64,000 nt of DNA from an uncultured Rikenellaceae bacterium (GCA_964419775.1 CAYQRF010000002.1:7837-71836); one strand, 5' to 3'; counted from the stretch's first letter, positions 38,081-50,193 are shown. The notes: generated by a model not told the origin, from the sequence alone. Made by a program: numbers and translations.

Positions 38081-38710
38081 ATGGATAAAGTGCAAGAAAT
38101 GAGTTCTGACGGACTTGAGTTGCCGCTGGTTGAAGAGTTCTTTACGATTCAGGGAGAGGGATATCACTCAGGAGAGGCAGCGTGGTTCATCAGGCTGGGT
38201 GGCTGTGATGTTGGTTGCAACTGGTGCGATTCGCGCTTTTCATGGGATCCGGCCATGCATCCTCTGGTTCCGACGGAAAGGATTATTGACCACGCACTTG
38301 GTTCAGGTTCAGGATCAGTGATTGTTACCGGTGGTGAACCCCTGATGTGGAATCTTGATCTCCTGTGCAACGGGCTTAAAAATGCAGGCCTGCGCACTTT
38401 CATTGAGACCTCGGGTGCTTACAGGCTTAGCGGGGCGTGGGACTGGATATGTCTGTCGCCAAAGAAGAACATGCCGCCGACAGGAGATATCTGCCTTAAA
38501 GCAGATGAACTTAAAGTAATTATTGAAAACACAGATGATTTTGAATGGGCGGAGAAATACAGGAATCTGGTCGGACCCCGGTGCCGGCTCTACCTCCAGC
38601 CGGAATGGAGCAGGTTCAGGACAGTCATTCCTGATATCGTCAGCTATGTTAAAGCGAATCCCGTCTGGAAAATCTCCCTGCAGATACACAAATACATGCA
38701 TATTCCCTAG
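38081..38710 (+). CDS. queE: 7-carboxy-7-deazaguanine synthase (radical SAM)
   Basis: EEFFTIQGEGYHSGEAAWFIRLGGCDVGCNWCDS, which has the CxxxCxxC cluster in QueE context. 209 aa. Confidence 0.85.
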   Translation: MDKVQEMSSDGLELPLVEEFFTIQGEGYHSGEAAWFIRLGGCDVGCNWCDSRFSWDPAMHPLVPTERIIDHALGSGSGSVIVTGGEPLMWNLDLLCNGLKNAGLRTFIETSGAYRLSGAWDWICLSPKKNMPPTGDICLKADELKVIIENTDDFEWAEKYRNLVGPRCRLYLQPEWSRFRTVIPDIVSYVKANPVWKISLQIHKYMHIP

Positions 38711-38711
38711 G

Positions 38712-40655
38712 ATGAAACAAGGGCTGATCTTAATTATTGCATTCGTTCTGGTATTATTTATATCTGAGAATCAGTGCTATTCACAGAAATACCACACAAC
38801 TTCCGTAAAAGCCCTCAAGTTCTACAAGGCTGGAATGACTGCCTTTGACTATATCGATTACATAAATGCCGAAAGCTACTTCAATCAGGCGATTGAAACG
38901 GATGGAAACTTTTTTGAGGCTTATATGATGCTGGGTGAACTTCTCTCCAAGCAGAGGAGATACGGCGAGGCAGCCAGTAACTTCCAGAAAGCGGTCAGTC
39001 TCGATTCCACAGCCTACATGCCTGTCTTTTTCAACATGGCCACAGCTGAACTGATGTCGGGCAATTACGAAAGGGCACTAGTTCATTACAAAGTTTATCT
39101 GGCCCAGGATAAGATATCGGAAAAGAATAAGGCGCTTGCAATCAGAAATATAATAAACTGTGAGTATGCAATAGAAGCAGTTAAGAATCCTGTCCCCTTC
39201 AGCCCCGAAAGCGTTGGCAATGGCATAAACACCATACATGACGAATACTGGCCCTCTATTACCGCCGACGGACAGACTCTGATGTTTACTCGTCAGACTA
39301 AACCGGGTGAAAATGTCCTCAGGAGAGGTATTTCACAGGAGGATTTCTATGTCAGCTTCATGCAGGAGTCAGTCTGGAAGGAAGCGGTCAATGCTGGCAG
39401 TCCGCTGAATACAAGTCAGAATGAGGGAGCCCAGAGTCTGTCATCCGATGGTAACTACATGTATTTCACCGCATGCGACCGTTCCGGAGGATTGGGAAGC
39501 TGCGACATATTCTTTTCAGCTTTAAACAATGGCCGCTGGTCAATACCTGTCAACCTGGGAAGTCCTGTCAATACATCCTTCTGGGAAAGCCAGCCCTCTG
39601 TCAATGCCGACGGGCGGATGTTGTTCTTCTCGAGCAACAGACCAGGGGGCATCGGCGGGAAGGATCTTTATTTTTCAGTCTGGAAATCGAACGGAAAATG
39701 GAGTTTTCCCCGGAATATGGGAGACAAGGTAAATACACCGGGCGACGAGATGTCGCCGTTTATTCATTTTGACGGGAGGACTCTTTATTTTGCTTCTGAC
39801 GGGCGGCCGGGGATGGGCGGATCTGATATTTATTTCACCAGGATGCTTGAAGATACAACCTGGACGGAGCCGGTGAACCTGGGTTATCCCATTAATACCT
39901 ACAATGATGAGATGGGGCTCACAATCGAATCAGGAGGAGAGAAAGCCTATTTTTCATCCAGAAGGGACGACAGGGGAGGCAAGGATATCTTTTCTTTCAG
40001 GCTTCATGAGGCTGTGCAGCCCGACCCTGTGGCATATATCAAGGGAAAAGTCACCGACAAGGTAACCGGTCAGATGCTTGTTGCAGAATATGAGCTGGTA
40101 AACCTTACAACCGGTAAATCAGTATTCAATAACCAGACTGACACCAGGGGGAATTTTCTGGTTTGTCTGCCGTCAGGGAATAATTACGGCCTCAATATCA
40201 GCAAGGACGGTTACCTCTTTTATTCCGAAAATTTCATGCTGGAGGGAACTCATTCAGTATTGCAGCCTTTCATTAAAAACATTATGCTCAGCCCGTTCAG
40301 GGTAGGTGAAAGGATGCTTCTTTCCAATGTGTTCTTTGAAGTCGATTCGTGGCAGCTTAAAAAGGAATCCGTTGCCGAACTTAACATGCTGTCTGATTTA
40401 CTAAAGAACAACGGGGAACTAAGGGTTGAAATAGGCGGATACACTGATTCCACGGGTTCGGAAGAACACAATCTGGACCTTTCTGAGAAGAGGGCTCTTG
40501 CCGTGGTGGATTTCCTTGTGAGCAGCGGTATTCCTCAGGCGAGGCTGACTTACAGGGGATATGGAAATGCCTCACCTGTGGGAGATAATGTTACTTCCGA
40601 AGGCCGAAAACTCAACCGCCGTACTGAGGTTCAGATCACAGGGTACAAAAAATAG
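38712..40655 (+). CDS. OmpA-family protein with N-terminal TPR repeats and TolB-like (PD40) beta-propeller repeats
   Basis: Start taken at MKQGLILIIAFVLVLF (ATG at 38712). It has TPR-like helices and repeated W.E..N....N....E..PS...DG...FF.S.R.GG.G..D.. units. The C-terminal OmpA motif is GYTDSTGSEEHNLDLSEKRA. Confidence 0.85.
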   Translation: MKQGLILIIAFVLVLFISENQCYSQKYHTTSVKALKFYKAGMTAFDYIDYINAESYFNQAIETDGNFFEAYMMLGELLSKQRRYGEAASNFQKAVSLDSTAYMPVFFNMATAELMSGNYERALVHYKVYLAQDKISEKNKALAIRNIINCEYAIEAVKNPVPFSPESVGNGINTIHDEYWPSITADGQTLMFTRQTKPGENVLRRGISQEDFYVSFMQESVWKEAVNAGSPLNTSQNEGAQSLSSDGNYMYFTACDRSGGLGSCDIFFSALNNGRWSIPVNLGSPVNTSFWESQPSVNADGRMLFFSSNRPGGIGGKDLYFSVWKSNGKWSFPRNMGDKVNTPGDEMSPFIHFDGRTLYFASDGRPGMGGSDIYFTRMLEDTTWTEPVNLGYPINTYNDEMGLTIESGGEKAYFSSRRDDRGGKDIFSFRLHEAVQPDPVAYIKGKVTDKVTGQMLVAEYELVNLTTGKSVFNNQTDTRGNFLVCLPSGNNYGLNISKDGYLFYSENFMLEGTHSVLQPFIKNIMLSPFRVGERMLLSNVFFEVDSWQLKKESVAELNMLSDLLKNNGELRVEIGGYTDSTGSEEHNLDLSEKRALAVVDFLVSSGIPQARLTYRGYGNASPVGDNVTSEGRKLNRRTEVQITGYKK

Positions 40656-40736: not shown

Positions 40737-41573
40737 TCAGGTAGGACTCATAGTACTCGAAAATTCGTTGATTGAATTATCGCGGTTTACAGCTGCCGCG
40801 ACAGGTATGGAGAAAAAGATGGAAGAACCTGTTCTTCCGTTGTTCTCAATCCAGAGCGATCCGTCCATCATCCGGATCAGTTTGCGTGCAAGGGCCATGC
40901 TTACAGCCATATGGATGTCGTTAAACTTCGCAAGTGATTCTGATATATCCCTGCTGTGAAGAAATTCCCTGCATTTCAGGTAACCCTGACCCGAATCAGT
41001 GATGCAGAACCTGAGATGGCCATCAGCAATGTTATAGCCGACTTTAATATACCCTGATTCAGTGTTGCTCAAAGCGATCTGGAATAAATTGCGAATTACC
41101 CTTGTCACCCTGTTGGCATCAAAGAGGCAGTCAGGACTCTGGCAGGTCAAATTGTCGGATACAAGAAGCAGATCCTTGTATCTTTCCTTTTGAAGTATTT
41201 CCCTGAACTCTGAAAAAAGACCAGCGAACATCTCACCCGTATGCACTACTCCCGGTTCCGAAATTGAATTACCCGTATCAATGATTGCGGAATCCAGGAA
41301 ATTGTCAAAAAGTGAAATAATCTGTTCGCATGAATTATATATGTGATTGCTGAATTCTTCCCGCTCGGCTTCGCAATATTCCTTCTTGTTCATCATGAAT
41401 GAAAATGCAACTATTGCGTTCATCCGGGTCCTCATTTCGCGCGACAGCTCAGTCAGCACTGTGGAACAGCCCGATACCGGTTCAATCAAATGATCTCCGT
41501 TTCTGGCCTGATCCCTTTTTACAGGAACCGGATCACCCGAATCACCCCTCATATGCCCAAAAAGGTCGAACAT
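40737..41573 (-). CDS. cytoplasmic histidine-kinase-like protein lacking the phospho-acceptor His (degenerate HisKA + HATPase_c)
   Basis: The H-box position reads LSREMRTRMNAIVAFSFMM, against the canonical SHELRTPLNAI, so Arg replaces His. An N-box-like NLFQIALSN and a G1-like DSGQGY are present. The G2 region (MAVSMALARKL) has no glycines, and there is no TM segment. Confidence 0.65.
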   Translation of the reverse strand: MFDLFGHMRGDSGDPVPVKRDQARNGDHLIEPVSGCSTVLTELSREMRTRMNAIVAFSFMMNKKEYCEAEREEFSNHIYNSCEQIISLFDNFLDSAIIDTGNSISEPGVVHTGEMFAGLFSEFREILQKERYKDLLLVSDNLTCQSPDCLFDANRVTRVIRNLFQIALSNTESGYIKVGYNIADGHLRFCITDSGQGYLKCREFLHSRDISESLAKFNDIHMAVSMALARKLIRMMDGSLWIENNGRTGSSIFFSIPVAAAVNRDNSINEFSSTMSPT

Positions 41574-41601: not shown

Positions 41602-42357
41602 TTATTTCAGGTATCTGAGAATTTTCCTTGCTTCTTTTCTGTAGATGGTCCTTGAATCTTCAATTGTTGCCAGCTGGCTGACTGCCTTGACTGTCTCACC
41701 TGTCTTCAGATAACAAAGGGCAAGGTACCACTGTGCATGGTCAATATAGAAGTTGTTATTATCTTCTATGACTTTTGAGAATGAATCGCTTGCTTCAGGA
41801 TAATTCTGTGTTTCAAATTTTGAAATGCCATTAAGCAGTTCGGTATGCATGTCGCCCGGATTTTCTGCCAGGACCCTGGAGAAGTAGATTGCGGCGTTCC
41901 TGTAATCCCTTACGTTGTAGTATTCCACGCCAAGCCTGAAATTATCCGAATTTGATGCCATGTTTGCCGAACGCGATATTGTCGCCACTTCATAAGGTTT
42001 GTAGTAGCGGCTTATTATCTCGTCGGTCTCAGGCTTTCCCCGCGACAGCAATGCGATGCTTCCTATTATTACCAGGCTGGCTATCGCGGCAGCGAATCTT
42101 ATATTAAGCGGCTTCCGTGGTTTTACTTCGGGCACCGGCTCTTTACGCTGCTTCTCAATAGCATTCAGCTTGTTGCGCAGATTCATTATATCCCGGTCCT
42201 TCAGAATCATATCGGTCCTGCTGCGCAACTCAACCTCCCGGCGAAGCTTCTCATTGCCTTCCAGCTCTTTTCTGAACCATTCCTTTTCAGCTTCATCCAT
42301 CTCACCGGCATTGTACCGTTCGATAAAGTATGAAAAATCAATTGTCTTCATAGCCAT
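41602..42357 (-). CDS. single-pass membrane protein with cytoplasmic anti-sigma-like N-domain and extracytoplasmic TPR domain
   Basis: The start is MAMKTIDFSYFIERYNAGEMDEAEKEWFRKEL (ATG at 42357 or 42351). A TM helix FAAAIASLVIIGSIALL sits near residue 100, and TPR-like repeats follow (YYNVRDYRNAAIYFSRVL, YLALCYLKTGE). Confidence 0.6.
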   Translation of the reverse strand: MAMKTIDFSYFIERYNAGEMDEAEKEWFRKELEGNEKLRREVELRSRTDMILKDRDIMNLRNKLNAIEKQRKEPVPEVKPRKPLNIRFAAAIASLVIIGSIALLSRGKPETDEIISRYYKPYEVATISRSANMASNSDNFRLGVEYYNVRDYRNAAIYFSRVLAENPGDMHTELLNGISKFETQNYPEASDSFSKVIEDNNNFYIDHAQWYLALCYLKTGETVKAVSQLATIEDSRTIYRKEARKILRYLK

Positions 42358-42564
42358 ATAATGTTTAAGTATATATCCAATTATCATCCATTCAGACTGA
42401 TAGCATGTACATACCTGATGCACGGGCTACAGCACTCCGAATGCAATTCCACTGCCGGGAAAAAATTCTTCCAGCCCGGCTGAAATTCAATCAACCAAAA
42501 ACAACCTTCTGCCGTTTAAACAGAACCCTGCCTTCACTAAGACAGAACCGGCAGCTATATTTTT

Positions 42565-42699
42565 TCAGATCTGAACAGGAGGCAATGAGGGTTTCAGAAT
42601 AGGATCGGCATCACCGCCTTTCACACAAATCATTTCTTCAACTGTCAGAGCATAGACATCAAGAGTCACATCGTGGTTTTTTACGTTCAGGGAGTTCAT
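42565..42699 (-). CDS. double-glycine (GG) leader peptide precursor, 44 aa; predicted mature 15-mer DADPILKPSLPPVQI
   Basis: Hand translation gives MNSLNVKNHDVTLDVYALTVEEMICVKGG/DADPILKPSLPPVQI, then a stop. It has GG at -2/-1, hydrophobic residues at -4, -7, -12 and -15, and EE at -9/-8. It falls below the size cut-off of the ORF track. A C39-ABC exporter and HlyD partner are in the same locus. Confidence 0.7.
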   Translation of the reverse strand: MNSLNVKNHDVTLDVYALTVEEMICVKGGDADPILKPSLPPVQI

Positions 42700-42946
42700 A
42701 GTGCTGATTTTTTTACATTGATACTTATTTCGGGTAATTCGCAATTTTTAAGTCAAATTCTATGTATCATGTCGGAATACCCCGTTTTGTGACAATGAAA
42801 ATTGAATTATTTTTAATAAATTTTCTTATATCAAGATAATCAGCAATATACAAAACAGGAAAAACGGGCACACAGACCTTCATAATAACATTTTTTGTAA
42901 ACTTGCGTTTTGGCACTGGGGAGAGACAAATAAATCAGCGACCTTA

Positions 42947-45900
42947 ATGTTTTCAGGCATCTTCATAAAGTCATTATTGGTATTTTTCATTTCTGCTGTC
43001 AGTATTCAACTGGAATCTGGAGTTACGGATACCAGTCAGGAGCTTGCCCGATTGAATGAGGCCTTTCATGCAACTATTGCAGCCGGCGACACCGCCGGAT
43101 CGAGGGATATTCTTAATTCAATCCTGAAGATGCTCAGTGAGGATAGTGCTGAAAATATCACCGTCGCAAATTCACAGTATTATATCGGTGTCTATTATCT
43201 GCTGAACGGCAGGAACAAGGAAGCTGTCAACTGGCTGGGTTCGTCGGTATCGATCCGTGAACAGACAAAGACTGTTGACGAGGTGTATGCAAAGAGCCTC
43301 TTTAATCTGGCCCTGGCACATTCCCGGCGCGGAGATTTCAAAAAGATGGAGGAAAGCATACTCAAATCTCTTGATGCTAAAAAGTCCATGTATGGCGGGA
43401 ACAGTCCCAGACTGCTCGACGGATATTCCGCATTGACGGGAGCCTGCATCAGCCTGAAGGATTACAGCCGGGCAATAGAATACGGGAATAAGGCACTCGA
43501 CCTTATAGGGGATGACAGGAATGAACATATTAACGAACTGGCGATCCTTTATGTGAATATCGGCATAAGCCATGCCTTTATGTCAGATTATGCAAAAGCG
43601 GTAATGTTCCTTGAAAGGGCAGAAGCATTGTACCGGACCAGCTCCCTTCCCGGGGATGAAAACTATATTAACCTGCTTAACAGCCTTGCCTCCAATTACC
43701 ATTTCCTGGGACAGCGCGAAAAATCCGAACAATATTTCAACAAAGGTTTCAGTTTGATAAGCTCGGCAAATTCCGATTTGTCGCTGAATTTTCTGAACAG
43801 CTTTGCAATAAACATGGGAAACGCCGGAGAGGTGTTAAAAGGGGAGAAACTCCTGGCCGGATCACTTGACAAGGCCGGAAAGATATTTGGTCAAAGATCG
43901 AGGGAATACTGCGAGATGCTCAGGAATTACGCCGAATATTACAGAAGTTTCAATCTGAATATAGGTAAATCAATTGCATTATTTGAAAAGTGCAATGAAT
44001 TGCTTAAGGACAACGCAGAGGATCTTGCATTGAAAGAATCTGTTCTGCTCGGATATGCCCAGGCTCTTTCAGAAAACGGGGAGAATGTAAAAGCTCTTGG
44101 GATAATTCAAAATCTTCTTTTCGAAGGCCGGGAAGGGACAAACGGAGGTTCGGGACTTGAAAATCCCGATCCGGCTTTAATTGAACCTACTCAATGGTCG
44201 CTAAGGCTGCTCAGGGCAAAATACCGCATACTCCATGGGATCTACAGGAAAGAGCCTGATCAGAGCTACCTTCTGGCTGCAGCCGGGACGTCCGAACTGA
44301 TAGTATCCCTGATTGAAAAGGTCAGGATAAGCATCAGTGAGGAAGAGAGCAGGCTTGTGCTCGGCGACAGGTTCAGGGATTCCTATCTTCACGCCATCCG
44401 CGATCTTGACCGGTGTTACCGTATAACCGGCGACATCAGATATCTGCACAAGGCTTTTGAATATTCCGAAAAATCGAAGGCTGCCGGCCTTCTGGCTTCA
44501 ACAAGGGAACTAAGGGCAACAGAGTTTCATATTCCTGAAGAAACTGCGGAACTGGAACGAAGGCTTAAAATGGAAATTGGATTTTATGAAGCCAGAATAA
44601 ATGAGGAAGAATCAAAAAAAGAAGGTGATGTCTCCCTTATAGAGGAATGGAAGGACCTTCTGCTGACGGCCACACAGCGGCGGGATTCTCTGATTGCTGT
44701 CTTCGAGCGTATGTATCCCGGTTATTATCATATCAAATACAATACTGAGGTTATTTCACCCGAAAAGATCCCGGGCATTTCGGGAAGGAACACCAACTAC
44801 CTCAATTATGTTGTGTCCGACAGCCTCCTTCATATTTTTGTTGTAAACCGGAAGCACTTCCGGCTTGTCACGGTAAACATTGACTCAACTTTTTTCAGTG
44901 ATATCCGGCAATTCCGGACTCTTCTGTCGGAACCTGACAATAATGCCCGTACAGGTTTCAACAGATACCTTTCAACAGGCTACAGGCTTTACCGGACTGT
45001 CATTGAGCCTGTGAAGGAATATCTGATTTCAAACAGCCTGCTGATCTCTCCCGACAACATTCTTTCCTACATACCATTTGAAGCACTTCCTGTCAGCGCT
45101 GAAGCCGGGAACCTTGCCATGTTCACCCGGATTCCATATCTCCTGAGGGATTACATGGTCTCCTATACCTATTCCGCCACAATGCTCGCTGAATCAGTCA
45201 CCAGCGATCACAGTTTTTCAAACTCACTTGTAGCCTTTGCCCCAAGCTATAACGGGAGGATCGATGTTGACTCACTTATGAAGTCAAGGCAATCAAGGGT
45301 GTCAACCCTGTACGACCTTAAATTTGCCAGGACCGAGGCTGAATATGTTGCGGAACTCACAGGAGGCAGGCTTTATCTCGACAATGACGCGAAAGAATCG
45401 GTTTTTAAAACCGTTGCATCTGAATATGATATTATTCATCTTGCAATGCATACCTTGCTGAACGACCAGGATCCGATGCATTCAAAGATGATTTTTTCGC
45501 AGGATGACGATACTCCGGAGGACGGCAACCTTAATACCTGGGAGGTTTATGGGATTCCGCTCAAGGCAAAAATGGTTATACTAAGCTCCTGCAATACCGG
45601 AAGCGGTTCCCTGAATTCAGGCGAAGGCATACTGAGCCTTGCCAGGGGCTTTGTTTACTCAGGATCCAGGTCAGTTGTCATGTCAATGTGGGAAATAGAA
45701 GACAGGTCGGGTGCCGAGATAGTGAATAAATACTACAGGAACATCAAACATGGAGCGTCCAAAAGCATGGCGTTGCGAAAGGCAAGGCTTGACTATCTTA
45801 AAAATTCCGACATGCTGCGATCTCATCCGTATTACTGGTCGTCGCTGGTTGTTTACGGAAACAATACACCAATTTATTTTTCAGTATGGCTGAAAGTTGG

Positions 45901-45964
45901 AGCGGTAATGCTTCTCCTTGTTATTTCTGTCCTGCTGTTCCTGATTTATCGGAAATCAAGGTAA
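42947..45964 (+). CDS. TPR-repeat CHAT-domain (caspase-like) protease with N-terminal signal/anchor and C-terminal TM helix
   Basis: 1005-aa ORF with many TPR-like repeats in the first 400 aa or so. The CHAT His motif is YDIIHLAMHT and the Cys motif is MVILSSCNTGSG. The C-terminal TM helix VGAVMLLLVISVLLFLIY is followed by RKSR. Confidence 0.85.
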   Translation: MFSGIFIKSLLVFFISAVSIQLESGVTDTSQELARLNEAFHATIAAGDTAGSRDILNSILKMLSEDSAENITVANSQYYIGVYYLLNGRNKEAVNWLGSSVSIREQTKTVDEVYAKSLFNLALAHSRRGDFKKMEESILKSLDAKKSMYGGNSPRLLDGYSALTGACISLKDYSRAIEYGNKALDLIGDDRNEHINELAILYVNIGISHAFMSDYAKAVMFLERAEALYRTSSLPGDENYINLLNSLASNYHFLGQREKSEQYFNKGFSLISSANSDLSLNFLNSFAINMGNAGEVLKGEKLLAGSLDKAGKIFGQRSREYCEMLRNYAEYYRSFNLNIGKSIALFEKCNELLKDNAEDLALKESVLLGYAQALSENGENVKALGIIQNLLFEGREGTNGGSGLENPDPALIEPTQWSLRLLRAKYRILHGIYRKEPDQSYLLAAAGTSELIVSLIEKVRISISEEESRLVLGDRFRDSYLHAIRDLDRCYRITGDIRYLHKAFEYSEKSKAAGLLASTRELRATEFHIPEETAELERRLKMEIGFYEARINEEESKKEGDVSLIEEWKDLLLTATQRRDSLIAVFERMYPGYYHIKYNTEVISPEKIPGISGRNTNYLNYVVSDSLLHIFVVNRKHFRLVTVNIDSTFFSDIRQFRTLLSEPDNNARTGFNRYLSTGYRLYRTVIEPVKEYLISNSLLISPDNILSYIPFEALPVSAEAGNLAMFTRIPYLLRDYMVSYTYSATMLAESVTSDHSFSNSLVAFAPSYNGRIDVDSLMKSRQSRVSTLYDLKFARTEAEYVAELTGGRLYLDNDAKESVFKTVASEYDIIHLAMHTLLNDQDPMHSKMIFSQDDDTPEDGNLNTWEVYGIPLKAKMVILSSCNTGSGSLNSGEGILSLARGFVYSGSRSVVMSMWEIEDRSGAEIVNKYYRNIKHGASKSMALRKARLDYLKNSDMLRSHPYYWSSLVVYGNNTPIYFSVWLKVGAVMLLLVISVLLFLIYRKSR

Positions 45965-46545
45965 TCCTTGTATTCCGGGTCGGATTTCACCAGCTCCATC
46001 AGCGCTTCTTTACTTAGGTATTTCTTGCGCCTTGCGTAGGTTTCATTCTTCAGATTCATTTTTTCAGCAATCTCCGGGTATGAAAATCCCTCTGAGAACA
46101 GTGAAAGAATAGTCTGCGCATCATCGCTCAGCTTTCTGAAAGCACGGCTGACAATGCTTTCAAGCAGCAAACCCGGATCATCACCTTCGTCATCATCAGG
46201 ATAATCACTATCAATTCCGGTATTTCTCATCCTTTTTCTCAGCTGTGCATTCCATACATTCCGTGCAATTCCGTAAAAATAACCCCTGAGGTCAGTCGTG
46301 AGCTTAAAACCATCTGACGTAATCTGACGATAAAGTGTAATAATGGATTCCTGGAACACATCGGCGACATCGGACTCCGACCCGCTGTTCCTGAGCACAT
46401 GATGCCTTACAGTCTCAAGGTAATTATCATAGAGCCAGTTCAGTATCTGATCATCCTGTTGCCGGATTCCATCTACTATCGTACTATCTGAGATTCTTCG
46501 GAACAATTGCTGATTTTTTGCCCGGATAAATTGACAAATATACAA
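45946..46545 (-). CDS. sigma-70 family (ECF-type) RNA polymerase sigma factor
   Basis: Region 2-like DVADVFQESIITLY...YFYGIARNVW and a region 4 HTH (FSEGFSYPEIAEKMNLKNETYARRKKYLSKEAL). There is no in-frame ATG near the 5' end; candidate TTG starts are at 46545 and 46506. The 3' end overlaps the CHAT gene by 19 nt. Confidence 0.8.
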   Translation of the reverse strand: MYICQFIRAKNQQLFRRISDSTIVDGIRQQDDQILNWLYDNYLETVRHHVLRNSGSESDVADVFQESIITLYRQITSDGFKLTTDLRGYFYGIARNVWNAQLRKRMRNTGIDSDYPDDDEGDDPGLLLESIVSRAFRKLSDDAQTILSLFSEGFSYPEIAEKMNLKNETYARRKKYLSKEALMELVKSDPEYKDYLDFR

Positions 46546-46667
46546 TTTCCCGCGACCGAAAGTATCGAACTGTCAGCGCTGGAGGTACTCAAATTAACAA
46601 TTTAAGGCATTTCTGATAAATAATAAATATATTTACTCCTCTTAATTAAACGGTTAGGTACTGGAAA

Positions 46668-48854
46668 ATGTTATTCCCCTTTGTAAAACAACATGATGCA
46701 ATGGATTGTGGCCCCGCCTGCCTCAAGATGATAGCGGCGTATCACGGGAAAAACTTTTCAATGGATTACCTGCGAAAGAAATGTTACATAACGAAGGAGG
46801 GTGTATCCTTCCTGGGTTTGTCAGAGGCTGCAGATTCTGCAGGATTCAGGACAATGGGGATTAAAATACCCTTTGAGGTGCTCCGGGAAAAAATCGCACT
46901 CCCATGTATAGTTCACTGGCGTCAGAAACACTTCGTGGTTGTTTACCGGATCAGGAAAGGAAAAATATATGCAGCGGACCCTGCGACCGGACTTGTAACC
47001 TATACTCAGGATGAATTCGAAAAGAACTGGGCAGTCACAATGGTCGACGGTAAGCCTGCCGGCCTGGCTCTGACCGTTGAACCGACTCCCTCGCTTTACA
47101 GCCTCGATGACCAGCCGGAAAAGACAGGAGGCTTCAGGTTCCTTCTGAAATACTTCAGGCTGTACAGGAAATATTTCGGTCAGCTTCTCCTGGGGCTGCT
47201 GATCGGTAGTTGCATCCAGCTGATTTTCCCTTTCCTCACCCAGTCAATAATTGACATCGGGATCAACAATAATGACCTGGGATTCATTTACCTGATACTG
47301 TTTGCCCAGCTGGCCCTGATACTTGGCCGAATGTCGGTTGAATTCATCCGCGGATGGCTGCTCCTTCATATCGGATCGAGAGTTAACGTTGCCGTGGTTT
47401 CCGGATTTCTGAACAAGCTGATGTCGCTTCCCGTGGCTTTTTTTGACACCAGGCTCACAGGCGATATAATCCAGCGAATTGACGATAACCACAGGATAGA
47501 GGATTTTCTTACATCAGCCAGTCTCAGTATATTGTTTTCATTTGTAAATCTTGTTGTGTTCGGCATAGTGCTCGCCGCCTTCAGCCTGAAAATATTCCTG
47601 ATTTTCCTTGCGGGAACAGGCCTGTATATTCTGTGGGTTTCGCTGTTTCTCAAACCAAGGGCGAAGCTGGATGATCTACGATTCAGGGAAATGTCAGTAT
47701 CAGGTTCGAAGCTGATTAATATCATCAACGGAATGCAGGAGATAAAACTGACCCAGAGCGAAACAAGCAAGCGCTGGGACTGGGAAGTCCATCAGGCATC
47801 CCTGTTTTCCCTTAAGGTTAAAGGTCTGGGGCTTATTCAGTACCAGTCGGCCGGTGCCACCCTTGTCAACGAGGTAATGAATATTTTCATAACGATTTTT
47901 GCGGCAACAGCTGTTCTGAAGGGACAAGTGACGCTGGGTATGATGCTTGCAGTTCAGTTTATAATCGGACAGCTCAATATTCCTGTTAACCAGATCATCG
48001 GCTTCTTTCGCATGTCGCAGGATGCCAGGATCAGTCTCGACCGTCTCGCTGAGGTTCATAATATGGAAGATGAGGAACCTTTGCCTGAGGAAAAGCTTCA
48101 GCAAATGCCGGACGACCGGACCATCAGGATTAACAATCTTGCGTTTCAGTATGAGGGTCCCCGTTCGCCCTATGCCCTGAAGGATATCACTCTGGATATT
48201 GAACCGGGAAGGACTGTGGCAATTGTTGGCACAAGCGGCAGCGGTAAGACAACTCTACTGAAGATGCTTCTTGGATTCTATCAGCCGGTTAACGGAAACA
48301 TAACTGTTGGAGGCATCAGTCTGTCGGACATAAGCTTGCGGCTCTGGAGGAATAAGACAGGAGCGGTAATGCAGGATGGATTCCTGTTTCCCGACACTAT
48401 AGCCGGCAATCTTGCCCCGGGGGCTGCGGCAATTGATGAAGCCAGGCTTCGTGAAGCGGTTGAAACAGCCAACATAAGGGAATTCATAGAATCTCTCCCC
48501 CTGGGATACAATACCAGGATCGGTGCAAATGGCCACGGCCTCAGTGAAGGCCAGAAACAAAGGCTGCTGATAGCCCGGATTGTATACAAGGACCCGGAGA
48601 TAGTCCTGTTCGATGAAGCCACAAATTCACTCGATGCAAATACTGAAAAGGCAATCGTTGAAAACCTGTCAGGATTCTTCAGAAACAAAACGGTTGTCAT
48701 TGTAGCCCATCGTTTGAGTACAGTCAGGAATGCTGACAAAATAGTGGTTCTTGAGGGAGGCCGGATCATTGAAACCGGAAACCACCGGGAACTTGTCGAA
48801 AGCAGAGGTGCTTATTACAACCTGGTAAAAAACCAGCTGGAACTGGGGAATTGA
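46668..48854 (+). CDS. peptidase C39 domain-containing ABC transporter (PCAT; GG-leader peptide cleavage/export)
   Basis: The N-terminal C39 domain has Gln/Cys (KQHDAMDCGPACL), His (RQKHFVVV) and Asp (AADPATG). It also has six TM helices, Walker A GTSGSGKTT, signature LSEGQKQR, Walker B IVLFDEAT and H-loop VAHRLS. Confidence 0.9.
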   Translation: MLFPFVKQHDAMDCGPACLKMIAAYHGKNFSMDYLRKKCYITKEGVSFLGLSEAADSAGFRTMGIKIPFEVLREKIALPCIVHWRQKHFVVVYRIRKGKIYAADPATGLVTYTQDEFEKNWAVTMVDGKPAGLALTVEPTPSLYSLDDQPEKTGGFRFLLKYFRLYRKYFGQLLLGLLIGSCIQLIFPFLTQSIIDIGINNNDLGFIYLILFAQLALILGRMSVEFIRGWLLLHIGSRVNVAVVSGFLNKLMSLPVAFFDTRLTGDIIQRIDDNHRIEDFLTSASLSILFSFVNLVVFGIVLAAFSLKIFLIFLAGTGLYILWVSLFLKPRAKLDDLRFREMSVSGSKLINIINGMQEIKLTQSETSKRWDWEVHQASLFSLKVKGLGLIQYQSAGATLVNEVMNIFITIFAATAVLKGQVTLGMMLAVQFIIGQLNIPVNQIIGFFRMSQDARISLDRLAEVHNMEDEEPLPEEKLQQMPDDRTIRINNLAFQYEGPRSPYALKDITLDIEPGRTVAIVGTSGSGKTTLLKMLLGFYQPVNGNITVGGISLSDISLRLWRNKTGAVMQDGFLFPDTIAGNLAPGAAAIDEARLREAVETANIREFIESLPLGYNTRIGANGHGLSEGQKQRLLIARIVYKDPEIVLFDEATNSLDANTEKAIVENLSGFFRNKTVVIVAHRLSTVRNADKIVVLEGGRIIETGNHRELVESRGAYYNLVKNQLELGN

Positions 48855-48864
48855 ACCTTGGAAT

Positions 48865-50193
48865 ATGGAAGAGCCGGAAAAAGATGAGATAGTATATTCA
48901 GAACCCGTTAGAGATCTGATGGGAGCTGTGCCTGGCAGGATACTGAGGTGGGGCACAGGAATTATCATGGCAGTAATGGCCCTGTTTATTTTCTTCCTGT
49001 GGCTTGTGAAATATCCCGACAGGATCCCCGCACCGGTTGAAATTACTACGGTTAACCCGCCTGCCATACTTGTTTCAAAAATATCCGGAAGAATTAACAA
49101 TCTTTATGTGAACGACAGGGACGAGGTCGGGGAGGGCCAGTTGCTTGCAGTGATGGAAACTGCGGCTTCGATAAGCGAAATCAACCATCTCAAATCAATT
49201 GTCGACACTGTCGGTGACCCGGGAAGGTTGCTTCAGAATTCACTCCCCGTTTTTTCAGAGCTCGGAGAGCTGCAGAGTTACTGGAGCTCCTTTCTTAAAA
49301 GCCTGTCTGATTACAGCAACTACAATATCAATGACTTTTACGGCAATAAGATCCTTTCGCTTACAGATGAGATAAACGCTATTCTGGCTTATATCGGAAA
49401 AGTAAAGGTGAAGGAGGATTTGTACTCCGAGAACCAGATGCTTGAAACCAGGAAGTACCGAAGGGATTCGCTGCTTTATTCTGAAGGAGTATACTCTGAA
49501 AGCGAGCTGGAGAAATCACTCCAGGCTCTGATCAGGCTTAACATAGAACTTCAGCAGGTACGGCTCGATCACTCCCAGAAATCAATCGAACTTGCTGAAA
49601 AAAGGCAGTTGCTTCAGGATTACAGAATCAGGGGACTGGAGGACCGGGAAAAGTATTATTCGGTTCTTAGTGAATCTTTTATGAATCTCAGGGCTCAGTT
49701 AAGGATATGGGAAAATACCTATTTGCTTGTATCTCCTGTCGCGGGAACGGTAACACTTACCAGGTTCTGGAGCGAAAATCAGACAGTTGGCAAAGATGAA
49801 CCTGTCATGAGTGTTATTCCCACGGAAACCGGAGACTATGTCGGCAGGATAAGCCTTAAAATGAACCGTTCAGGCAAGGTCAAACCCGGTCAGGATGTCC
49901 ATATCAAATTAAGCGGATATCCGTACCTGGAATATGGGATGGTAAGGGGAGTCGTGAAATCAAAGTCCCTGGTTCCTTCAGCCGATTCGTATATAATAGA
50001 AATATTCCTGCCTCAGGGCCTGACTACCCTGTATGGGAAAAATCTCGATTTTACACAAAATATGCAGGGTACTGCAGAGATAATCACAGAGGACCTTCGT
50101 CTGCTTGAGAAAATTCTCAATCCGGTCAGGCATCTTGTTTCCCGGAACCAGAGCCGGGCTGTTTCCCTGAATAAGGCTCATAGGTATCCCTGA
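48865..50193 (+). CDS. HlyD-family membrane fusion / secretion accessory protein
   Basis: 442-aa ORF with an N-terminal TM helix (GIIMAVMALFIFFLWLV), a long coiled-coil middle and a C-terminal beta domain. It starts 10 nt after the PCAT stop. Confidence 0.85.
   Translation: MEEPEKDEIVYSEPVRDLMGAVPGRILRWGTGIIMAVMALFIFFLWLVKYPDRIPAPVEITTVNPPAILVSKISGRINNLYVNDRDEVGEGQLLAVMETAASISEINHLKSIVDTVGDPGRLLQNSLPVFSELGELQSYWSSFLKSLSDYSNYNINDFYGNKILSLTDEINAILAYIGKVKVKEDLYSENQMLETRKYRRDSLLYSEGVYSESELEKSLQALIRLNIELQQVRLDHSQKSIELAEKRQLLQDYRIRGLEDREKYYSVLSESFMNLRAQLRIWENTYLLVSPVAGTVTLTRFWSENQTVGKDEPVMSVIPTETGDYVGRISLKMNRSGKVKPGQDVHIKLSGYPYLEYGMVRGVVKSKSLVPSADSYIIEIFLPQGLTTLYGKNLDFTQNMQGTAEIITEDLRLLEKILNPVRHLVSRNQSRAVSLNKAHRYP

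Follow-up and report, generated by a model that had tools for sequence, protein, structure and literature searches.

A predicted exported and membrane-anchored TPR-CHAT protein associated with an ECF sigma factor and an anti-sigma-like protein in Bacteroidota

Can a caspase-fold protease of the CHAT type work outside the cytoplasm, and what would it be doing there in the company of a sigma factor? The question is raised by a 1005-residue TPR-CHAT protein encoded at positions 42947..45964 (+) of a 64,000-nt stretch of DNA from an uncultured Rikenellaceae bacterium (GCA_964419775.1, CAYQRF010000002.1:7837-71836), the whole of which is referred to here as the window and provides the numbering used throughout. 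Among the known CHAT proteases, separase, Craspase and SAVED-CHAT are all cytoplasmic, DdvA being the single periplasmic example, with a protease activity that is proposed. A preliminary description of the window had drawn attention to the hydrophobic N-terminus of the protein and to its C-terminal transmembrane helix followed by RKSR, had concluded that the TPR array and the CHAT domain would be periplasmic, and had suggested that such a protein, lying next to a sigma factor and an exported peptide, follows a different input logic. The open reading frame exists exactly as it was given, supported by Pfam CHAT and TPR matches and by homologues. The observation as a whole is confirmed, and its interpretation is supported in part, as set out below.

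The topology of the protein was examined by a Kyte-Doolittle scan, which found only two hydrophobic segments, at residues 2-20 (FSGIFIKSLLVFFISAVSI; hydropathy 2.08) and 982-1000 (LKVGAVMLLLVISVLLFLI; 2.83). The first belongs to a predicted Sec-type signal peptide of about residues 1-22 (42947..43012 (+)), recognised from hydropathy and from the n-, h- and c-regions of homologues, with SLLVFFISAVSI as its h-region and a possible cleavage site, placed by prediction, after an A-V-S motif. The second is a transmembrane helix continued by a basic tail that ends in RKSR and would be cytoplasmic (45890..45961 (+)), as judged from hydropathy, conservation and tail charge. Both features are kept in homologues. 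In a close set of 115 full-length homologues (46-89% identity), all 115 have the C-terminal hydrophobic helix and the basic tail, and 88 have an N-terminus above a strict hydropathy threshold, most of the others apparently having mis-called start codons. An exhaustive HMMER search of 1.8 billion representatives returned 14,246 proteins at E<1e-30; in a distant set made up of the best 130 full-length proteins of these 14,246 matches (27-47% identity), the C-terminal helix was found in 115/130 and a Sec-like N-terminus in 114/130. Many of the homologue N-termini have the textbook layout of a signal peptide: a basic n-region leads into an h-region, and the probable cleavage site is preceded by small residues.

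The distribution of charges was then considered. In 227 proteins, the C-terminal tails have a mean length of about 8 residues with 3.6 Lys/Arg, and 99% of them have at least two, as against 1.2 Lys/Arg in the 15 residues preceding the helix. At the other end of the homologues, a mean of 2 Lys/Arg lies ahead of the h-region and acidic residues follow it. The C-terminal helix starts about 10 residues past the last strand of the CHAT fold, with a conserved G[DN]xxP[LIV] as a short linker after that strand, and unanchored paralogues end at exactly the last CHAT strand (...YWAPFILIG). Hydropathy, charge distribution and conservation strongly support a type I membrane protein in which TPR and CHAT are periplasmic and the catalytic domain is held near the membrane surface; the conserved Sec-like N-terminus, C-terminal helix and basic tail thus bear out the extracytoplasmic placement proposed earlier, and there is little doubt that the protein is exported and held on the periplasmic face of the inner membrane. 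For the bulk of the protein to be cytoplasmic with both termini outside, or for the hydrophobic ends not to be membrane segments, seems hardly credible. The single Lys in the n-region of the window protein's own signal peptide would fit such an arrangement, but the strong charge bias, with 3.6 Lys/Arg in a short tail and acidic residues after the h-region, the textbook Sec signal peptides of homologues and the periplasmic location of the closest solved full-length structure, DdvA (PMC11506125), all speak against it. We also considered the C-terminus, with its motif, helix and basic tail, as a sortase/exosortase-type sorting signal; this was not adopted, since the conserved G[DN]xxP[LIV] is just the linker mentioned above and no cognate sorting enzyme is linked to the protein.

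We next asked whether the exported domain has what a CHAT protease requires. The Pfam CHAT family (PF12770) matches residues 678-972 (44979..45862 (+)) over profile positions 4-289 of 289, and therefore over the whole domain, with E=1.8e-54 and 185.6 bits against a curated cut-off of 24; several TPR families match the N-terminal half, for example TPR_12 at E=1e-24. The two catalytic contexts, which had been described as intact, are both present in the translation: IIHLAMHT, with His831 and His835, and LSSCNTG, with Cys882. Their codons were checked and lie at 45449..45451 (+) for His835 and at 45590..45592 (+) for Cys882. All three residues are invariant in a 23-sequence family alignment. In a broader alignment of 84 sequences, which takes in anchored and unanchored relatives with identity down to 22%, just seven residues are invariant, His835 and Cys882 among them, so that the conservation of the dyad is upheld by a proper alignment.

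Searching the CHAT half against the PDB by sequence gave no match, and the search of the PDB with profile A1 matched TPR proteins alone; a comparison of folds was therefore required. In the full-length AlphaFold2 model (pLDDT 73.5 overall), residues 28-597 are all-helical, with pLDDT mostly 80-92, in line with a TPR/helical scaffold array that, from the model and the Pfam TPR matches, covers about residues 28-600 (43028..44746 (+)). The best PDB match of this model was DdvA (8rot_A, E=3.6e-9), followed by TPR proteins, separase and the Craspase TPR-CHAT protein. Because this first model was poor near the active site (pLDDT <50 at residues 878-923), residues 560-981 were refolded from a more diverse alignment, giving a pLDDT of 89.2 and a pTM of 0.87. 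Foldseek matched the refolded CHAT domain to Csx29 (E=1.6e-14, TM-score 0.59), DdvA (E=4e-11, 0.46), separases (E about 2e-10, about 0.53), SAVED-CHAT (E=2.4e-7 and weaker, 0.30-0.35) and gingipain R (E=1.2e-5, 0.40). The domain model has three helices after Cys882 (residues 893-905, 919-934 and 939-952), which may correspond to the three-helix element missing from the active site of DdvA; the window CHAT domain is closer to Csx29 and separase than to DdvA (TM-scores 0.59 and 0.53 versus 0.46). On these models, the CHAT domain is a genuine caspase fold of the separase/Craspase type and a predicted protease.

What, then, does this protein have to do with the sigma factor next to it? The 3' end of the CHAT gene overlaps by 19 nt with a convergent gene, that of a sigma factor of the extracytoplasmic function (ECF) type (45946..46545 (-); Pfam Sigma70_r2, Sigma70_r4_2 and Sigma70_ECF; TIGR02937, E=3.6e-14). 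On the other side of the CHAT gene lies the gene of a single-pass TPR protein with the layout of an anti-sigma factor (41602..42357 (-); transmembrane helix at residues 86-104; Pfam TPR), whose position near the ECF sigma and CHAT genes is conserved. We found 474 species genomes with a relative of the TPR-CHAT protein carrying both [IV]LSSCNTGxG and [ED]D[GR]xL[NK]T[YWF]E[VI]. The best 80 of these 474, all from uncultured Bacteroidales or Bacteroidia, were taken as close loci, and they have in common the order QueE, OmpA/PD40/TPR protein, kinase-like protein (-), anti-sigma-like protein (-), GG-leader peptide (-), CHAT (+), ECF sigma (-), PCAT exporter (+) and HlyD-type adaptor (+).

The association was followed across the phylum by sampling 251 Bacteroidota genomes and counting as a relative any match at E<=1e-30. 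A TPR-CHAT relative was found in 100/251 genomes, about 40% of those sampled, and in 53/126 genera. Sixty distant loci from many genera were then examined with hidden Markov models of the sigma and anti-sigma-like orthologues. Of the 41 CHAT genes in these loci whose products have the C-terminal anchor, 26 have an anti-sigma-like gene within 1.5 kb, whereas none of the 23 unanchored ones does (Fisher's exact p=1.2e-7, uncorrected for phylogeny). The adjacent anti-sigma-like gene is often 0-20 bp from the anchored CHAT gene and is accompanied by an ECF sigma gene; the two members of this pair mostly abut or overlap, like classic sigma/anti-sigma pairs. The arrangements vary: sigma, anti-sigma-like and CHAT genes may follow one another on one strand, the pair may be convergent with CHAT, or the two genes may flank it, which argues for selection on proximity and not for inherited order. 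The link to a sigma factor made in the preliminary description therefore extends phylum-wide, in unrelated gene orders, and this statistical association supports the view that the TPR-CHAT protein, the ECF sigma factor and the anti-sigma-like protein would form a three-part module widespread in Bacteroidota.

A few of the distant loci depart from the simple pattern. In L106, L110 and L113, a sigma/anti-sigma-like pair lies 2.7-7.6 kb from an unanchored CHAT gene; unanchored TPR-CHAT paralogues (ending ...YWAPFI[VL][IV]G) occur there as tandem pairs in some genomes. In L115, two anchored TPR-CHAT genes stand in tandem and adjoin a single sigma/anti-sigma-like pair.

The anti-sigma-like protein has a conserved cytoplasmic N-terminus of about 85 residues, one transmembrane helix, a linker and a periplasmic TPR domain. 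Its homologues share 50-80 or so N-terminal residues of the form xxYLxGxLSxEExxxFExxL, and this architecture, together with the position of the gene, suggests an anti-sigma role. In an alignment of 23 anti-sigma-like proteins with only 14-26% identity, one Ala of the membrane helix is invariant and Arg129 (codon 41971-41973) is the sole near-invariant residue outside the helix. This Arg lies in the periplasmic linker, about 25 residues beyond the transmembrane helix, in a motif resembling YxPYPNxxxPxxR[GS], and the 'RS' pair is at least 90% conserved in an alignment of 74 anti-sigma-like sequences. Separase and gingipain R, structural relatives of the CHAT domain, cleave after Arg. As a lead, Arg129 is a concrete candidate cleavage site. 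A site-2 protease could be supplied by the genome, in which a 445-aa open frame on contig C160 matches Peptidase_M50 (E=1.7e-52) and is of RseP type; the family is near-universal, and its presence is weak evidence.

These features invite comparison with DdvA of Myxococcus xanthus, described in 2024, an anti-sigma factor with a periplasmic TPR-CHAT region that makes the earlier premise of exclusively cytoplasmic CHAT proteases outdated. DdvA is a single-pass protein with a periplasmic TPR-CHAT part of about 900 residues and a His-Cys dyad; its authors propose that, upon a signal, CHAT cuts the linker beside the membrane helix and RseP then sets the ECF sigma factor DdvS free, and in their model the juxtamembrane linker faces the active site (PMC11506125). 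It is stated to be the sole characterised anti-sigma factor of its type, DdvA-like proteins being reported only in Myxococcota and one Comamonas (PMC11506125), and our search of the literature for periplasmic or Bacteroidota CHAT proteins found only the DdvA work. The DdvA-DdvS system (8rot, 8rw5) and the window locus share a TPR-CHAT protein with a His-Cys dyad, periplasmic in the former and predicted to be so in the latter; in each, the protein has one membrane anchor and is genetically linked to an ECF sigma factor. DdvA, however, is one chain of zinc anti-sigma domain, transmembrane helix, linker and TPR-CHAT, anchored at its N-terminus, whereas the window protein has a signal peptide, a C-terminal anchor and no cytoplasmic domain, the anti-sigma-like domain being carried by the separate single-pass TPR protein. 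The locus resembles a DdvA-type control of an ECF sigma factor with its parts split among proteins, and does not look like a wholly new invention; a different input logic is still plausible, DdvA having anticipated it in part. The arrangement of separate CHAT, single-pass TPR anti-sigma-like and ECF sigma proteins is apparently undescribed, and the main text of the ECF classification paper makes no mention of CHAT. DdvA controls a CBASS/CRISPR island, whereas PADLOC gave no defence-system match for the module at the window locus, the only matches being to generic ABC ATPases; no cas genes occurred among the neighbours scanned, nor any association with Cas7-11/gRAMP, Csx30 or Csx31.

Two further systems offer partial parallels. 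Csx29 of the type III-E Craspase has the same TPR-plus-CHAT architecture and is the best structural match of the CHAT domain, but it is cytoplasmic, is activated by RNA-bound Cas7-11 and has neither signal peptide nor membrane anchor. The Csx29 pathway, too, is reported to have an ECF-type sigma factor as its end point, reached by way of Csx30 cleavage (PMC10028731). In its proposed working, the module would resemble DegS-RseA-RseP by analogy, with an anchored periplasmic protease bearing a peptide-binding sensor, a single-pass anti-sigma target and a site-2 protease; the differences are that DegS is a serine protease, senses through a PDZ domain and is anchored N-terminally, whereas the window protein has a Cys-His caspase fold, a putative TPR sensor and a C-terminal anchor.

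The best explanation overall is an anchored periplasmic TPR-CHAT protein within a split DdvA-like sigma module, which we hold tentatively, at somewhat less than an even chance. The mechanism that we prefer, namely signal-activated CHAT cleavage of the anti-sigma-like linker followed by site-2 release of the sigma factor, is by itself possible but doubtful. Its starting point is the topology that sequence and conservation support: the Sec signal peptide directs export, the TPR array and CHAT are periplasmic, and the C-terminal helix keeps the catalytic domain against the inner membrane from the outside, leaving a basic tail of 4-10 residues in the cytoplasm. A periplasmic signal would bind the TPR surface and activate the CHAT protease. 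The activated enzyme, as site-1 protease, would cut the juxtamembrane linker of the anti-sigma-like protein at or near Arg129, and the RseP-type site-2 protease would then free the ECF sigma factor. For this Bacteroidales clade, a possible signal is the proline-rich peptide that the module itself would export through its PCAT, which would resemble the activation of DegS by C-terminal peptides. The roles of CHAT as site-1 protease, of the exported peptide as activating ligand and of a two-block motif upstream of the peptide gene as the promoter of the sigma factor are those that we infer.

The peptide is encoded by a 44-codon gene (42565..42699 (-)) and consists of a leader, MNSLNVKNHDVTLDVYALTVEEMICVKGG, followed by DADPILKPSLPPVQI, the predicted exported core; leader and core are both conserved in syntenic loci. 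A counterpart was found in 73/78 syntenic loci, with a conserved leader of the form ...LSxEEMIxV[KR]GG (here ...EEMICVKGG). The core has a short variable acidic stretch followed by (E/D)P-I-x-x-P-x-x-P-P-[IV]-[KR]-I and always ends there. Such a conserved core with a fixed C-terminus would suit a ligand better than a diversifying toxin. Export would be assured by a Peptidase-C39 ABC exporter (PCAT; 46668..48854 (+); Peptidase_C39, E=1.8e-37, ABC_membrane and ABC_tran; TIGR01193, E=1.5e-124) and an HlyD-type periplasmic adaptor (48865..50193 (+); TIGR01843, E=9e-22; transmembrane helix at residues 30-48). The neighbouring exported peptide of the preliminary description is thus a real gene, but it is not a general partner of the family: the 60 distant loci yielded neither GG peptides nor C39 domains, and the peptide/PCAT/HlyD set is therefore, as judged from gene content, an addition specific to this clade.

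The peptide gene also differs from its neighbours in its promoter region. Upstream of it, at 42768..42794 (-), lies TGTCACAAA-N11-CGACATG, a motif of two blocks whose conservation in 75 loci is 80% or more; the window has a single copy. Relatives have one or two further copies per genome, as against 0 matches to a reversed control. Unlike that of the peptide gene, the boxes of the sigma, CHAT and PCAT genes resemble TAnnTTTG and are of the housekeeping type, and the sigma gene accordingly appears to have a housekeeping-type promoter. These data make the two-block motif a candidate alternative-sigma promoter, which the neighbouring sigma factor might read. A conserved minus-strand TATATTTG box at 46500-46560 overlaps the listed TTG start codon of the sigma gene, so that the true start probably lies further downstream. 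The window's own genome has a second copy of the candidate peptide promoter region (TGTCACAAAACGACCATTTCCGACATG plus flanks) at positions 1-60 of contig C15, at the contig edge. In the relatives L144 and L148, extra copies of the motif lie ahead of genes for a porin-like outer-membrane protein and for secreted proteins; one of these secreted proteins has a YPNP motif resembling a type IX secretion tail. A further genomic match, on contig C22, lies within a coding region and is probably due to chance. The 207-nt spacer between the peptide and anti-sigma-like genes contains a terminator-like hairpin with a T-rich tail (42469-42485 (-)), which could govern how much peptide transcript is made relative to that of the regulator.

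With its GG-leader peptide alongside a C39 ABC exporter, the locus recalls signalling of the ComC/ComAB type. In the MibX-MibW model of microbisporicin, the exported peptide inactivates the anti-sigma factor and frees the ECF sigma factor (PMC4203916). Both are Gram-positive systems, however, with no protease in the MibW model, and ComC-type peptides are read by a membrane histidine kinase, whereas the kinase-like protein of the window is soluble and lacks the acceptor His. One step beyond the general mechanism would be a self-induced peptide circuit in this clade, in which the peptide C-terminus (...PP[IV][KR]I) is read by the TPR array of CHAT, CHAT cuts after the linker Arg, and the freed ECF sigma factor drives the TGTCACAAA-N11-CGACATG promoter of the peptide/anti-sigma-like operon together with one or two loci for secreted or outer-membrane proteins. 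Taken as a whole this circuit is distinctly unlikely; if true, it would be DegS-like logic carried out by a caspase fold, a transduction route so far undemonstrated.

Several findings weigh against the module and mechanism that we favour, and they leave room for other explanations. The association of genes, besides the disregard of phylogeny in its test, is as compatible with CHAT being an output of the sigma factor as with its being an input. The N-terminal domain of the anti-sigma-like protein was unrecognised in Pfam and PDB profile searches, which matched the TPR part alone, and the protein has a weak NCBIfam 'anti-sigma factor' match (NF052375, E=0.0058). As for the peptide branch, peptide and exporter are absent from the distant loci, and the regions upstream of 37 sigma genes there yielded no copy of the two-block motif. 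The main alternative is that CHAT is the output: the sigma pair would sense envelope stress by other means and induce a protease acting on envelope or foreign proteins. We consider this rather unlikely. ECF operons commonly contain members of their own regulon, and in Bacteroidota clan CD proteases that work outside the cytoplasm, gingipains among them, act as effector enzymes. Gingipain R is indeed a structural match of the CHAT domain, and several distant loci (for example L092, L108 and L127) run sigma, anti-sigma-like, CHAT on one strand, as would an autoregulated operon with its effector. Yet in the window and in many other loci CHAT is convergent with the sigma or anti-sigma-like genes and has its own housekeeping-type promoter box. 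The short membrane tether and the strict tie to an adjacent anti-sigma-like gene (26/41 versus 0/23) better fit a membrane-protein substrate, and an effector role would leave the near-invariant linker Arg unexplained.

It is also conceivable, but highly unlikely, that CHAT acts on the peptide, trimming its acidic N-terminal residues or destroying it, or that it is a non-catalytic TPR receptor or scaffold, with the sigma factor being controlled when the anti-sigma-like protein binds the peptide directly through its TPR domain. The variable acidic stretch between the GG site and the conserved (E/D)P-I motif would suit trimming, the anti-sigma-like protein has a periplasmic TPR domain of its own, and in the microbisporicin model peptide export inactivates the anti-sigma factor MibW without a dedicated protease (PMC4203916). 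The trio of CHAT, sigma and anti-sigma-like genes is nevertheless widespread without GG peptide or PCAT, so peptide processing cannot be the core role of the protease, and the invariant dyad argues against a pure scaffold. Finally, there might be no functional link at all, CHAT being a general periplasmic protease whose neighbours are kept through shared ancestry. The synteny of the 80 close loci does reach unrelated genes, QueE and the OmpA/PD40 protein; since housekeeping neighbours such as QueE are conserved too, this synteny may reflect relatedness alone and is by itself no proof of a functional link. Moreover, neither a sigma nor an anti-sigma-like gene lies within about 9 kb of 7/41 anchored CHAT genes in the distant loci. 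However, the adjacency recurs across many genera in varied orientation and order and is absent for unanchored paralogues, which makes the lack of any link very improbable.

The split DdvA-like module that we favour has consequences beyond this locus. The TPR-CHAT proteins make up a very large unstudied Bacteroidota family (14,246 representative clusters) in which the parts that DdvA unites in one chain would be split into separate proteins. Such a system is easier to dissect, as the protease, the proposed substrate and, in this clade, the candidate ligand are distinct molecules that can be produced one by one in the laboratory. The locus could thus be used to test a periplasmic caspase-fold enzyme as the site-1 protease of an ECF sigma pathway, and it could show whether Bacteroidota signal by exported peptides.

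Two other neighbours complete the locus. At 38523-40655 (+), the window encodes a protein of 710 aa in which TPR, four PD40 repeats and a C-terminal OmpA domain are recognised, together with a weak CarboxypepD_reg match, and this protein is found just upstream of the module in 65/80 close loci. PG1058, which takes part in type IX secretion in Porphyromonas, has this domain order. The soluble histidine-kinase-like protein is the product of the last gene of the peptide/anti-sigma-like unit (40737..41573 (-)); it has Pfam HisKA and HATPase_c matches and no transmembrane segment. Its H-box reads S-R-E-M-R-T, Arg replacing the acceptor His; this position is Arg in 16 orthologues and His in 29.

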